Assembly (NCBI RefSeq): GCF_003018115.1
Contig: NZ_CP027457.1
Length of the DNA: 64,000 nucleotides
Source of the DNA: Escherichia coli
GTDB lineage: Bacteria > Pseudomonadota > Gammaproteobacteria > Enterobacterales > Enterobacteriaceae
Direction: 5' to 3' (one strand)
A program made the position numbers and the translations under genes. The notes beneath the pieces are model-generated. The model made no database searches. It was not told where the DNA came from and was given only the letters and a program-made list of their open reading frames with translations. Numbering within the stretch: position 1 is the stretch's first letter; every line of letters starts with the position of its first letter. Below, piece by piece: positions 59,832-64,000 of this stretch.

Positions 59832-60044
59832 TTGTCCCGTAAAATGACAGGAATTGTCAAAACCTTTGACGGCAAAAGCGGCAAGGGTCTTATCACCCCA
59901 TCCGATGGTCGTATCGATGTCCAGCTTCATGTTTCAGCGCTCAATCTCCGCGATGCAGAAGAAATTACCACCGGATTACGCGTGGAATTTTGCCGGATAA
60001 ATGGTCTGCGTGGCCCTTCAGCTGCCAATGTTTACCTTTCATGA
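59832..60044 (+). CDS. cspF: Cold-shock-like protein (CspA family, divergent)
   Basis: 70-aa [40 protein letters not shown]...[19 protein letters not shown]. Confidence 0.85.
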
Positions 60045-60098
60045 GCTATATTAAAGCTTTAATTTCAGGCCCCATCGGATCACACATGGAGAGTTTTT

Positions 60099-60188
60099 AT
60101 GAATAACCCCGTCTGTCTTGATGACTGGTTGATTGGCTTTAAAAGCTTATGCTGTACTTTGGCCGTAATAGCTCTGCTAATAATATAA
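60099..60188 (+). CDS. Candidate 29-aa small membrane protein downstream of cspF
   Basis: ATG with GGAGAG RBS 5 nt upstream; [29 protein letters not shown] has a hydrophobic C-terminal helix. No homology evidence. Confidence 0.35.
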
Positions 60189-60465
60189 TAAGCAGACTCA
60201 TTGTGTTTAGGGACATTGTACTGGAAGAAAACATTTTAAACATCAGGCAAATAACCAAGTCACCAGCTAAATAATAAGTTAACAGACATGAGTCCCGGGA
60301 TGAGATTCAACATTACCATTGCCCCATTTAAAGCACAAAACCCGCTCATCAGCGGGTTTTCTACTTTTTCTTAACGTCGGGTATACAAAGCCCATCGTTG
60401 AAAAAATTTTATCCATATTTTTTGAAAAATGCAAACATCATGTCGCCATCTTCAGCAAAAATCAT

Positions 60466-61218
60466 TTATCTCGTCACCTTCCTCAATTGCGCTTCCGCGT
60501 ATGCTTCTTCCTGCCAGCACTTTGTTACCAGTTTACCAATGACGTCCGCATACCCCTTATACCACTGATAATCGGTCAGGTCTGGTACCAGCTTCTGGAC
60601 ATGACGTCGTGCCAGCGTGGTCGGTAAACGACTAAACCGGTTTCCATTACAACGCCCACAAATCTTATATACCGGTACGCCATGAAACCGGGTTCTTTTT
60701 TCATCCAGAACAATCCCTTTACCCTTACACCCTCTGCACGCTGTGCTGGCTTCGCCCTTACCATGGCAATGCTGACATAGTTCCTTCACCCATTCTTCCT
60801 TGATTACAGATTCCCCGCGTCTGTAGTGTTTCACCACTTCGCGCAATACATTATAAAATCCCGTACCTGAACAATGCTCACAGCGAGCCTTACTTGCCGC
60901 AGACCTGGAGTAATCAGCAAAGGCAAAACTCACGAGGTAAGGAATAATCTGTAACCGGATTTCTTCACTCAATTTGTTCAATGTCGGGTTATCCAGTGCC
61001 ATCGCGTAATTTAGCAGGCCTTCAATCGCAAACTGAGGGTCCTGAACACCAACTTTTGCCAGAAATAAGGCCAACCCAAGTGGTGCTTTCGACTGCACCA
61101 TCCCCTGCGCTGCCATTACATCCGTAATTGTTAAACAACCGGTGCCTGTCGCTGGAGCGTCATCGCTCAATTTTGGAGATTTTGGGGAGTAATATTTTGG
61201 TAAGGCTTCAAGGTTCAT
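60466..61218 (-). CDS. quuQ: Late-gene antiterminator Q-like protein
   Basis: MNLEALPKYYSPKSPKLSDD... 250 aa from internal ATG; Cys-rich zinc-binding motifs (CEHCSGTG, CQHCHGKG, CRGCKGKG, CGRCNGN). Confidence 0.85.
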   Translation of the reverse strand: MNLEALPKYYSPKSPKLSDDAPATGTGCLTITDVMAAQGMVQSKAPLGLALFLAKVGVQDPQFAIEGLLNYAMALDNPTLNKLSEEIRLQIIPYLVSFAFADYSRSAASKARCEHCSGTGFYNVLREVVKHYRRGESVIKEEWVKELCQHCHGKGEASTACRGCKGKGIVLDEKRTRFHGVPVYKICGRCNGNRFSRLPTTLARRHVQKLVPDLTDYQWYKGYADVIGKLVTKCWQEEAYAEAQLRKVTR

Positions 61219-61231
61219 GCTCGTTCTCCAC

Positions 61232-62320
61232 TTACGCCAGTACGCCAATTGTCAGCGCGCGATCGATAAAACGAAATATCAGCTCCAGTTGGGAGCCATA
61301 CTTATCTTCAAATGCCACTGTATCCGTATGCAGCTCGTTGTGATGCTTTCTGCACAAAGGCAACACAAAGAGATCATGTGCTTTTGTTCCCATTCCGCCC
61401 TGCCCGTGACCAATCAGATGATGCGGATCGTCGGCTGGCATACCGCAGCAAGCACACGGCTGTGTCTTAACCCAACGTGTGTATTTCTCCTTAACCCAGC
61501 GGCGACGTTTAGGCAGCTTCATGAAAGATTCCGGAGACTCTGGATCAACGGTGATGCTTACCACCGTCTTTTCCTGTGGTGATTTTTGTTGCTGGTGGGC
61601 GTAAGGCAACGGTGCAAGATTTTTTGTGCGTTGTTTCAATATGCTGGTGGCGGTCTGCTCTCCCGGTACGATGTCGCTTTCGCGGTACACCGAGCAGATT
61701 TTTTCCGCTGGTAATCCCAGCGAACGACGCGATACAGCCTCAGGTAGTGCATCCACCACCTGATTGCAGACCGCCCACCAGGATAATTCAGCCAAAGATA
61801 ATTCCCGCTCCTGCGTACCGCTTATTGCGTGACGGATGACGTCAATCACCCATGCTGTCAGATTTTGTTGAGCAAGCAGCTCCAGTGATTCCGATGTCTG
61901 GTCACGCAGTTGGTTGTCGCAGTGCCAGCACAACACCATTGCGCCGGTACCATAACGGTGAATGACTGTTTCAGTGTGATGGTAATCGCCATTAGGCCAC
62001 TGGCAGGATGTAACATGACGTAATAGCCAGTCGGACAATGCGCCAACGCCGCCAGCAGCACGAATCACCCGTTCGTTACTAAAAAACGGCAGCAATGTTT
62101 TGTCTTCCGCCAGCGGCTGGCGAACGGCAGGAACGACTCCGGATGGCAGATTACGCATGCTTTTTGGTTCCGGTTCCACCAGCACTCGAGGATTATGAAA
62201 TATCTGTATGGATTCACGGCCCGGCTTAAGGACCACCAGCCCAAGCTCAGGCACCAGAACAGGTCTAAGTAATACCCGCACGTTACCTCCAGATCCGTTG
62301 CTGGAAAGTGCGGGACGCAC
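61232..62320 (-). CDS. ydfU: DUF968-family prophage protein YdfU; start uncertain (track start may be extended)
   Basis: 362-aa ORF with C-terminal Cys/His cluster (CACCGMPADDPHHLIGHGQGG...CRKHHNELH). Confidence 0.8.
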   Translation of the reverse strand: MRPALSSNGSGGNVRVLLRPVLVPELGLVVLKPGRESIQIFHNPRVLVEPEPKSMRNLPSGVVPAVRQPLAEDKTLLPFFSNERVIRAAGGVGALSDWLLRHVTSCQWPNGDYHHTETVIHRYGTGAMVLCWHCDNQLRDQTSESLELLAQQNLTAWVIDVIRHAISGTQERELSLAELSWWAVCNQVVDALPEAVSRRSLGLPAEKICSVYRESDIVPGEQTATSILKQRTKNLAPLPYAHQQQKSPQEKTVVSITVDPESPESFMKLPKRRRWVKEKYTRWVKTQPCACCGMPADDPHHLIGHGQGGMGTKAHDLFVLPLCRKHHNELHTDTVAFEDKYGSQLELIFRFIDRALTIGVLA

Positions 62321-62561
62321 GTGGTGGGCGTTCGGAATAAGGCAGCCTGACAGAGATTATCCAGTGCCGATAGTCGAGACTGAGAGCTTTCTTAACCTCG
62401 AACCCGCGCCTGCGGTAAGAATGAATCAGCCATTCGGCCTGTTCTGCAGTGCATGGAGGGTGCTGGAACCATTCAGACTTGAATGCGTGAGAATACCGCC
62501 CGTGCGTGCAGGCAAGAACGGGCGAATTATCAGAATTGTAATATTTTGCGTTGCGTGCCAT
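62283..62561 (-). CDS. Hypothetical 92-aa protein immediately upstream of ydfU
   Basis: ORF MARNAKYYNSDNSPVLACTHGRYSHAFKSEWFQHPPCTAEQAEWLIHSYRRRGFEVKK...; non-random composition; ends where the shorter ydfU start would lie. Confidence 0.4.
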   Translation of the reverse strand: MARNAKYYNSDNSPVLACTHGRYSHAFKSEWFQHPPCTAEQAEWLIHSYRRRGFEVKKALSLDYRHWIISVRLPYSERPPRASRTFQQRIWR

Positions 62562-62627
62562 CGGTTTTCTCCGGTGGCACGGTGTTACTCAGCGGGAGTT
62601 CAGCCCCGCGCAAGATTGTAGATGAGT

Positions 62628-62879
62628 TTATTCTCCTGAAAAAGCAGAAAAGCCAGCTTTTATTCCGATCTCTTTCAATGCCTGTAATGAAGTGACAAAC
62701 TCACCTTCGCGCAAGATAAATCCGTCCGTGACCCGAGCATCCACAAAATTAATTAACGCAGCCCCATTCTTTCGCAAACACATAATGCGGTAATGACTAA
62801 CAAGATTTCCATTTTCAACGCACACAGCATAGAGGCCATCTTCACAAAAAATTTTACGCAGTTCTTCGATGTTCATCAT
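62628..62879 (-). CDS. rem: Qin prophage protein Rem
   Basis: 83-aa ORF MMNIEELRKIFCEDGLYAVCVENGNLVSHYRIMCLRKNG... Confidence 0.8.
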   Translation of the reverse strand: MMNIEELRKIFCEDGLYAVCVENGNLVSHYRIMCLRKNGAALINFVDARVTDGFILREGEFVTSLQALKEIGIKAGFSAFSGE

Positions 62880-62997
62880 CAGAATCCTTCCGGATAATTA
62901 GCTCTCCCCTTTAAGGGACCATCCCTCTTATCCCTGCGCGCTACTTAAGTATTTTTGATTCTATTCCGGCACCGTCCAGAACTTCAAACGCGTTGAA

Positions 62998-63027
62998 AAT
63001 AAAAACAAAAACCCGCCGAAGCGGGTT
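62998..63027 (-). terminator. Rho-independent terminator downstream of hokD (end of relB-relE-hokD operon)
   Basis: Hairpin AACCCGC-TTCG-GCGGGTT followed by T-run on the minus strand. Confidence 0.55.
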
Positions 63028-63095
63028 AAGTGCGGGTGCGTTGAGGATGCCTGCCACATCAGAGGTGGCGAGGGATTTCTCCCCCGCCGGGTCTC

Positions 63096-63251
63096 TTACT
63101 CCTCAGGTTCGTAAGCTGTGAAGACAGCGACCTCCGTCTGGCCGGTTCGGATTCGTACCTCGCAGAGGTCTTTCCTCGTTACCAGTGCCGTCACTATGAC
63201 GGTTAAACAGATGACGATCAGGGCGATTAACATCGCCTTTTGCTGCTTCAT
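63096..63251 (-). CDS. hokD: Hok-family membrane toxin HokD (RelF), 51 aa
   Basis: Minus-strand translation MKQQKAMLIALIVICLTVIVTALVTRKDLCEVRIRTGQTEVAVFTAYEPEE; below ORF-track cutoff. Confidence 0.85.
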   Translation of the reverse strand: MKQQKAMLIALIVICLTVIVTALVTRKDLCEVRIRTGQTEVAVFTAYEPEE

Positions 63252-63322
63252 AGCCTGCTTCTCCTGTCAACGCAAAGCAGAAGTGTCACCTTCGGTGCGA
63301 AACAGAGATGTCATGCTTTGGT

Positions 63323-63610
63323 TCAGAGAATGCGTTTGACCGCCTCGCTATATACTTCCGAGCGTTCTCTTTTCCCAACAGAAATCACGAAAACGACAAC
63401 TTTCTCGTCTATAACCTGGTATACAAGGCGATAGCCTGAAGACCGGAGCTTAATCTTGTAACAATCAGGCATACCACGGAGCTTGTTTGCTTCAATCCGG
63501 GGTGACTCAAGTACTTCAACCAGCTTCTTTTTCAACTGTTCACGTACCGTCGAGCCCAGCTTTCGCCATTCCTTTAGTGCCCGCTCGTCAAAATCCAGAA
63601 AATACGCCAT
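63323..63610 (-). CDS. relE: RelE mRNA interferase toxin
   Basis: 95-aa ORF MAYFLDFDERALKEWRKLGSTVREQLKKKL... Confidence 0.95.
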   Translation of the reverse strand: MAYFLDFDERALKEWRKLGSTVREQLKKKLVEVLESPRIEANKLRGMPDCYKIKLRSSGYRLVYQVIDEKVVVFVISVGKRERSEVYSEAVKRIL

Positions 63611-63849
63611 CAGAGTTCATCCAGCGTCACACGTACTGGCTTAGGATTACGAAGCCGTTCTTTCACTATCTCCACAAGTTCAGCATCTTCATCACTCAGG
63701 AGTGTCTGTTTGAACGGCAAGCGTTCATTGTCAGCGATATACTCGAGCATGAGACGAAGCGCTTCAGAAGGAGTTACACCCATTTTTTCAAGCGCGGCGT
63801 AAGAACGCGCTTTAAGTTCATCGTCAATACGCAGGTTAATGCTACCCAT
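63610..63849 (-). CDS. relB: RelB antitoxin (RHH DNA-binding)
   Basis: 79-aa ORF MGSINLRIDDELKARSYAALEKMGVTPSEALRLMLEYIADNERLPF...; 1-nt overlap with relE. Confidence 0.95.
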   Translation of the reverse strand: MGSINLRIDDELKARSYAALEKMGVTPSEALRLMLEYIADNERLPFKQTLLSDEDAELVEIVKERLRNPKPVRVTLDEL

Positions 63850-63860
63850 GTCTTACACCT

Positions 63861-63887
63861 CTTGTAATTACAAATGTCATTACAAGT
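63861..63887 (-). promoter_or_regulatory. relO: relBE operator: palindromic repeats overlapping the relB promoter
   Basis: CTTGTAATTACAAATGTCATTACAAG directly upstream of relB start; 12-bp palindrome TTGTAATTACAA plus repeated ATTACAA. Confidence 0.7.
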
Positions 63888-64000
63888 ATCGCACTACAAC
63901 ATGCTTAGGGCAAGTCACGAAGGAAGTCAGAAAGTAGTCGTAAGAACGGTGATCACTGTCCGCTTTGTGCCAGGAGCAGCCATTGCTAAGTCCATCCTGT

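Follow-up and report, generated by a model that had tools for sequence, protein, structure and literature searches.

Probable origin of relBE at hokD in a Qin-type prophage of Escherichia coli as cargo of an ISEsa1-type insertion sequence

The relBEF operon of Escherichia coli K-12 has been known since the 1980s, and in it the relB promoter is autorepressed through binding of RelB, alone or in complex with RelE, to the palindromes of relO. The same unit, relB-relE-hokD (hokD being also named relF), was identified near the right end of a stretch of 64,000 nucleotides (nt) of E. coli contig NZ_CP027457.1 (assembly GCF_003018115.1), which is called the window throughout. Comparison with other hok loci indicates, with a high degree of probability, that relBE is cargo at the right end of an insertion sequence (IS) of the ISEsa1 type inserted before hokD, and that hok genes are specifically targeted by this element. 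The operon itself is thus not new; the finding on its junction appears to be undescribed, and is well supported by the comparative evidence from sequence. No publication linking ISEsa1 to relBE or to hok was found in the searchable library, the 1985-86 relB/relF papers and the 1999 paper by Pedersen and Gerdes on chromosomal hok loci lying outside it.

The locus and its closest described relatives

Four described systems are relevant to this locus. The first is the K-12 operon, where probes for relB, relE and relF detect the same full-length transcript in northern blots and where activity of the relB promoter was demonstrated (PMC3598666). The second is the hok/sok family; in the R1 system hok is translated only if mok is translated as far as the start of hok (PMC9841398). 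The third is the IS1202 family, which comprises elements with large DDE transposases and imperfect repeats of 24-26 bp ending in TGT...ACA, with subgroups that duplicate 5-6, 15-17 or 27-28 bp of target and one subgroup showing oriented insertion at a fixed distance beside dif sites (PMC10132070; bioRxiv 10.1101/2022.12.17.520857). The fourth are the transporter IS (tIS), such as ISKpn21, in which a single transposase and unrelated passengers lie between terminal repeats (bioRxiv 10.1101/2022.12.17.520857).

The genes of the locus and the end of their transcript are the following.

63610..63849, minus strand: relB, 79 amino acids (aa), antitoxin and autorepressor; Pfam RelB PF04221, E=1e-32, full length
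63323..63610, minus strand: relE, 95 aa, mRNA interferase toxin, same as in K-12; Pfam ParE_toxin PF05016, E=2.2e-13
63096..63251, minus strand: hokD (relF), 51 aa with no frameshift, same as K-12 b1562; Pfam HOK_GEF PF01848, E=1.2e-23
63010..63027, minus strand: intrinsic terminator, where the hok mRNA and so also the relBE-hokD transcript end; AACCCGC-TTCG-GCGGGTT, then TTTTGTTTTTA

The region is the relBEF transcription unit of a Qin-type lambdoid prophage. Positions 62900-63899 align to relB-relE-hokD in the cryptic prophage Qin of K-12 MG1655 with 100% identity over 1000 nt, and sequence, gene order, operator, spacer and terminator are all the same, nothing being different in that stretch. 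Over a wider part of the window 2 mismatches in 3024 nt separate it from MG1655, so this wider sequence is not strictly that of MG1655. With rem, ydfU and the Q antiterminator as neighbours, the unit belongs to the late-regulatory region of a lambdoid prophage. Given the 100% identity to K-12, RelE would act by ribosome-dependent cleavage of mRNA and would be neutralised by RelB.

A previous sequence-only reading had described these genes as a single operon with a one-nucleotide overlap between relB and relE, an intact hokD of 51 aa on the same strand and a single terminator, and all of this holds. relB precedes relE, and the relB stop TGA (63612-63610) and the relE ATG (63610-63608) share one base within TGATG at 63612-63608, an ATGA overlap. 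The hokD frame is uninterrupted from 63096 to 63251, without the frameshift that the same reading had considered possible, and the stem at 63027..63010 with its T run is the sole terminator-like site on both strands of 62600-64000; this terminator is conserved in the hokD loci of BL21 and O157. The spacing of 85 nt given there for relE and hokD has to be corrected, as the intergenic gap is of 71 nt (63252..63322). That reading also left unstated that all three genes are on the minus strand and missed why they adjoin, the relE-hokD spacer being the terminal inverted repeat of an IS. What is added here to the K-12 relBEF operon is the recognition, from sequence comparison, of the spacer as such a repeat and of relBE as IS cargo.

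Element ends, target-site duplications and empty sites

hokD and its 3' untranslated region (UTR) are 97-99.5% identical to the intact hokD loci of BL21 and O157:H7, and this homology ends 13-14 nt upstream of the ATG. Upstream of this point the DNA of BL21 and O157 matches RF01794 (hok leader/Sok region) over its full length, with 115 and 104 bits respectively (threshold 59). In the window RF01794 gave no match at E<=10 in 63000-63400 and none at E<=1 in 60000-64000. The intact hokD locus is the common state, because a leader of the RF01794 type accompanies hokD-type genes in 4279 of the 5426 complete genomes from which all E. coli counts were taken. Exactly at the homology breakpoint sits the right terminal inverted repeat (IRR) of the element, and next to it one copy of the target-site duplication.

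63265..63290, plus strand: IRR of the ISEsa1-type element, TGTCAACGCAAAGCAGAAGTGTCACC; the left terminal inverted repeat (IRL) is TGTTAACACCAAGCTGTAATGTCCCC
63250..63264, minus strand: copy of the target-site duplication, GGAGAAGCAGGCTAT, spanning the hokD Shine-Dalgarno and the first two bases of the ATG

Both repeats have TGT termini and match at 19 of 26 positions, this being the best match on either strand of the 64-kb window. The tac-like UGCGUUGA in the spacer was considered as a relic of the hok leader and rejected, since it belongs to the IRR.

Complete copies of the element were identified elsewhere, flanked at both ends by direct repeats. In pRHBSTW-00975_2 a perfect direct repeat flanks a unit of 3301 bp with imperfect inverted-repeat ends. 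The repeat found in the window, GGAGAAGCAGGCTAT, flanks both ends of the complete element in loci L001, L007 and L014, and is a perfect 15-bp duplication in the chromosome of E. coli E2865, in phage PhiR42_1 and in one metagenome-assembled contig. Other perfect 15-bp duplications surround the element in an Enterobacter IncFII plasmid (GGAGAAGAAGGCCAT) and in a Salmonella IncI plasmid (TGGAGGGGCTATGAT), and GGAGAAGAAGGCCAT was identified again in a Klebsiella aerogenes IncHI2 plasmid, at a different hok gene. The IncHI2 copy contains as cargo a cation-efflux and cytochrome b pair together with an inserted ISEsa2, and its relBE is still beside the IRR. Four hok loci (prophage hokD and the hok genes of IncF, IncI and IncHI2 plasmids) therefore present three duplication sequences, all of them ending at the 'AT' of the hok ATG. 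The transposase of the complete copies, whose gene lies outside the window, belongs to NF033594 (ISNCY family transposase) with 464.7 bits for a cut-off of 250, and the IRL is abutted by the displaced leader, a full-length RF01794 match of 102-128 bits.

Removal in silico of the element and one of the repeats restored the uninterrupted locus of BL21, with 98.98% identity over 391 nt and no gaps. The same operation on the IncI copy yielded the sequence of IncI plasmid loci such as that of ColIb-P9, with 100% identity over 400 nt; at least 80% of this 400-nt empty site is present, at varying identity, in 1799 plasmids. For the IncF allele the product was co-linear with an uninterrupted hok/sok locus in a plasmid of Enterobacter ludwigii, with 82.9% identity over 386 nt.

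The element recognized from these comparisons is a transporter IS of about 3.3 kb of the IS1202 family (ISEsa1 type), carrying relBE as its right-end passenger. Its layout along the direction of relBE transcription is IRL, transposase, variable cargo, relB, relE and IRR, the variable cargo being either flxA and ydfV or the cation-efflux and cytochrome b pair. It would insert at one fixed position of hok, duplicating the 15 bp from the hok Shine-Dalgarno to the 'AT' of the ATG. The insertion would cut the hok frame off from its promoter, tac, mok start, Sok target and sok, all of which would now lie beyond the left end of the element, and would set hok directly behind relE. A later deletion in K-12 would have removed the displaced leader together with the left part of the element, ydfW being left as the last 49 codons of the transposase.

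A different origin, in which the K-12 operon arose by an unspecified 'major rearrangement' or by deletion of the hok leader with no mobile element involved, is very improbable. It is in agreement with the locus being K-12 sequence and with the lack, in K-12, of a transposase or left end beside relBEF, and older literature is said to describe hokD as inactivated by a major rearrangement. Yet the breakpoint coincides with a 26-bp terminal repeat, the 15-bp duplications are perfect and the empty sites can be restored, and the sequence runs on into the transposase and the IRL in many plasmids and in 756 E. coli genomes. K-12 moreover retains 2071 bp of the element, and its ydfW (L004 4175-4324, outside the window) corresponds to the last 49 residues of the transposase, 48 of the 49 being identical, so that ydfW is a fragment of a gene and not a gene in itself.

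The possibility of a single ancestral insertion, whose junction later reached other hok alleles through homologous recombination of the flanking DNA and without real target specificity, is somewhat less remote but still improbable. The element copies are 98.5-99.7% identical to each other, the conserved hok sequence near the Shine-Dalgarno and ATG could support recombination, and the IncF and IncHI2 loci share one 15-bp repeat. Against this, three duplication sequences exist, both copies at each locus being identical and matching the local allele, and recombination in the flanks would not rewrite both copies of a repeat. The flanks of the IncI copy are also 100% identical to the uninterrupted IncI loci up to the element ends.

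Distribution of the element and its relation to ISEsa1

The full relBE-hokD stretch was identified in 1161 of the E. coli genomes and hokD-like DNA in 4730, while the near-complete element is present in the 756 already mentioned. Outside the chromosomes, 680 plasmids contain at least 80% of relBE plus the spacer. In plasmids of Enterobacter, Klebsiella, Citrobacter and Salmonella relBE is about 99.5% identical and located before different hok alleles, and relB is in every case followed by ydfV, flxA and a transposase annotated as 'IS1202-like ISEsa1 family'. In the IncFII copy of Enterobacter (L005) a short annotated mok fragment follows as well. The complete element with both 15-bp repeats was found in addition inside the hokD locus of the deposited Escherichia phage PhiR42_1 (L007, ECOR13); its carriers thus include a deposited phage genome besides the cryptic prophages.

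The element shares with the IS1202 family, including ISEsa1 and the dif-targeting ISAjo2 and ISAba32, the NF033594 DDE transposase, the TGT...ACA repeats of 24-26 bp and an oriented insertion at a fixed position, and its 15-bp duplication falls in the 15-17-bp class of one subgroup (PMC10132070). It differs from the family in its size, 3.3 kb against 1.6 kb, and in carrying relBE and other cargo, and from the ISAjo2/ISAba32 group in its target, which is the translation-initiation region of hok and not dif. With tIS such as ISKpn21 it has in common the single transposase and the unrelated passengers between terminal repeats. Its difference from them is that next to the IRR there is invariably a type II toxin-antitoxin operon as passenger, reading outward across the repeat into the target gene.

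ISEsa2, of the IS110 family, is inserted at the same point of the element in L008, L010 and L011 (plasmids of Klebsiella aerogenes and Citrobacter freundii), and in the more divergent copies this point lies 1609-1610 bp from the outer IRL end. A cargo-free ISEsa1 of 1.6 kb with its own IRR was not found, the candidates either ending at the ISEsa2 insertion or being truncated. This distance is equal to the length of the ISfinder entry, which suggests that the entry is truncated and represents the left part of a longer transporter insertion sequence.

Some observations weigh against the origin proposed here. Of the element and its duplication the window holds just one end and one copy; the transposase and IRL are outside it and deleted in K-12. 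ISEsa1 is described in ISfinder as an element of 1609 bp with repeats matching at 15 of 22 positions and no detectable target duplication (PMC10132070), which an ISEsa2 insertion at that boundary would account for. The scan of the genome collection for the IRR yielded only 6 loci; 3 of them are informative for hok targeting and the other 3 are rearranged or have other flanks. In Enterobacter sp. Ag1 (L012 2760-2800) the IRR is followed by chromosomal non-hok DNA near apt, in Kluyvera (L015 884-960) by an IS5-family transposase, also non-hok, and in Citrobacter portucalensis (L017 8739-8929) it abuts an inverted hok leader. There are thus rearrangements or other targets as well.

Many plasmid hok leaders (annotated as DUF5431, which is mok) are directly flanked by other elements, namely ISKpn28, IS150 and ISKpn26. 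The hokA, hokC and hokE genes of K-12 are likewise interrupted by IS150 and IS186. Leaders of hok may be general hot spots for insertion sequences, or selected sites. It could be argued accordingly that the repeated position reflects selection for any insertion that disarms hok and not specificity of the transposase, this element being one of many insertion sequences at such sites. Such selection may contribute, as the elements adjoining plasmid hok leaders indicate; as the explanation of the position it is unlikely. Any position in the leader of about 170 nt would do for this purpose, yet in four loci of differing sequence the end of the duplication falls on the same two bases of the ATG, and a fixed distance between insertion and dif site is known from relatives in the IS1202 family (PMC10132070). 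Specific targeting of hok by the ISEsa1-type element is thus the preferred reading.

Regulation and translation of the leaderless hokD

In common with the intact hok/sok loci, hokD of the window keeps a Hok-family peptide in its coding sequence, the Shine-Dalgarno and start region, a structured 3' UTR with an fbi-type box, and the terminator. It differs from them in having no promoter, tac, ucb, mok start, Sok target or sok gene. Two remains of the native organization can be placed as follows.

63035..63047, minus strand: fbi-type 3' element of the hok mRNA, CCUCAACGCACCC, complementary to the 5' tac GGGUGCUUGAGG in intact loci (comparison with the BL21 leader)
63103..63270, minus strand: remnant of the mok frame overlapping hokD, opening only inside the IRR, with its natural start codon and Shine-Dalgarno lost

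The first would be an fbi element on the R1 paradigm (PMC9841398), and its native tac partner is missing from the window. A mok reading frame coupled to hok was not found in the window, only this remnant; it has no natural start, and on translation a stop codon within the spacer closes it, eight codons before its TTG. Hairpins are predicted in the hokD 3' UTR, which is conserved with the intact loci. On the minus strand at 63006-63087 this region also presents a match to isrK, a family of small RNAs of Salmonella prophages, with 25 bits for a threshold of 50, recurring in the hokD loci of BL21 and O157. It may reflect nothing but the hairpin-plus-terminator architecture, and the sub-threshold Rfam matches in the 3' UTR (isrK, rsmX and others) were set aside as a generic likeness of this kind.

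By comparison the junction is the product of an insertion, and hokD therefore stands outside of Sok control; to judge by the sequence it cannot be regulated by Sok. Having neither Sok nor mok nor a promoter of its own, hokD depends on read-through from relBE. That hokD is instead a type I toxin under independent regulation, having a promoter and an antisense RNA of its own, which the sequence-only reading had named as contrary to its view, is the least probable of the alternatives and can be considered practically excluded. Beyond the persisting mok remnant frame and the structures of the hok 3' UTR nothing was found in its favor. A separate hok promoter, leader and Sok antisense region are absent, with neither an RF01794 match nor a promoter-like site between relE and hokD, the 71-nt spacer is the end of an IS, and deletion of the relB promoter abolishes induction of the relF-containing full-length transcript (PMC3598666). 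The single operon of the sequence-only reading is in this respect supported.

Upon depletion of RelB, transcription would increase and proceed through relB, relE and the 71-nt spacer with the IRR into hokD, ending at the hok terminator. The operator and promoter from which it would start, and the cargo gene that diverges from them, are located as follows.

63861..63886, no strand assigned: relO operator, TTGTAATTACAA and an imperfect copy, between the putative -10 and the relB Shine-Dalgarno
63885..63913, minus strand: putative relB promoter, -35 TTGCCC (63913-63908), spacer of 17 nt, -10 GATACT (63890-63885)
63874..64000, plus strand: 5' part of ydfV, cargo gene of the element, divergent from relB, starting inside relO and continuing past the window end (RefSeq annotation of identical DNA)

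The palindrome noticed before in the relB promoter region, TTGTAATTACAA, was confirmed at 63862-63873, its only occurrence in the 64-kb window, where 0.13 chance matches are expected at <=1 mismatch. An imperfect second copy adjoins it at 63874-63885, and both copies form inverted arms of 12 nt at about 63861-63872 and 63875-63886 (converted from locus L005). We take 63861-63886 to be the binding site of RelB/RelE, from what is established for relBE of K-12. The consensus promoter scan, with a threshold of 9/12, reported no relB promoter, and none between relE and hokD; TTGCCC/GATACT reaches 8/12, so the putative relB promoter was assigned by reading the sequence. The visible 42 aa of ydfV gave no match in a Pfam search. 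In a 2025 paper relBE-ydfV is described as an 'excludon' with inverse expression (PMC12288877).

HokD is probably made poorly, because translation of hok needs that of mok and the two are uncoupled here; the start of hokD is not traversed by any reading frame, relE having ended 71 nt before it. Poor synthesis of HokD would explain the tolerance of strong relBEF induction. In effect the insertion would disarm a hok/sok module while bringing in relBE. Two observations speak for some caution. The start region of hokD, partly paired in both the native and the fused mRNA folds, is not predicted to be more occluded in the fused mRNA than in the native hok mRNA, with a mean unpaired probability of 0.28-0.46 in all contexts, and hokD keeps a strong AGGAG Shine-Dalgarno, so some translation is possible. 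As calculations of accessibility fail to separate the fused from the native mRNA, the case for translational silence is taken from the mok-coupling paradigm only. In the minimum-energy fold the IRR end at 63274-63267 (UGCGUUGA) pairs perfectly over 8 bp with the fbi box at 63044-63037 (UCAACGCA), both on the minus strand. This predicted pairing resembles the lost interaction between tac and fbi and may be due to chance.

At codon 47 (tyrosine) of hokD, TAC and the following G form a TACG motif at 63113-63110 on the minus strand. According to a preprint, the hokD mRNA is edited from A to I at this tyrosine, giving cysteine, as in hokB (10.1101/2025.08.07.668861).

A broader interpretation, to be regarded as doubtful, is that of an 'addiction swap' at the hok landing site, with a silent hokD, a transposase controlled in the manner of hok/Sok and an IRR that mimics tac. 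The translation-initiation region of hok would then be a dedicated landing site on plasmids and prophages, where the Sok-controlled hok would be disarmed and its toxin kept as a silent third cistron behind the relBE addiction module. The transposase gene, being downstream of the displaced hok promoter and leader, could come under control of the hok/Sok type. The IRR end would take the place of tac, pairing with fbi and keeping hokD untranslated.

The insertion of an ISEsa1-type element remains by far the best reading of the junction, and its consequences extend beyond this prophage. The comparison would explain a long-standing oddity, namely why a type I toxin gene without its leader is transcribed together with relBE, the archetypal type II system. 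It also indicates that relBE of K-12, on which many studies of persistence and stress have been made, often by deletion of relBEF, is the cargo of a mobile element; this element is widespread, in prophages as well as among plasmids of the IncF, IncI and IncHI2 types. Loci of hok would join the dif sites as specific targets of the IS1202 family. Competition between mobile elements could also be modelled on this locus in a testable way, one element neutralising the addiction module of another while installing its own.

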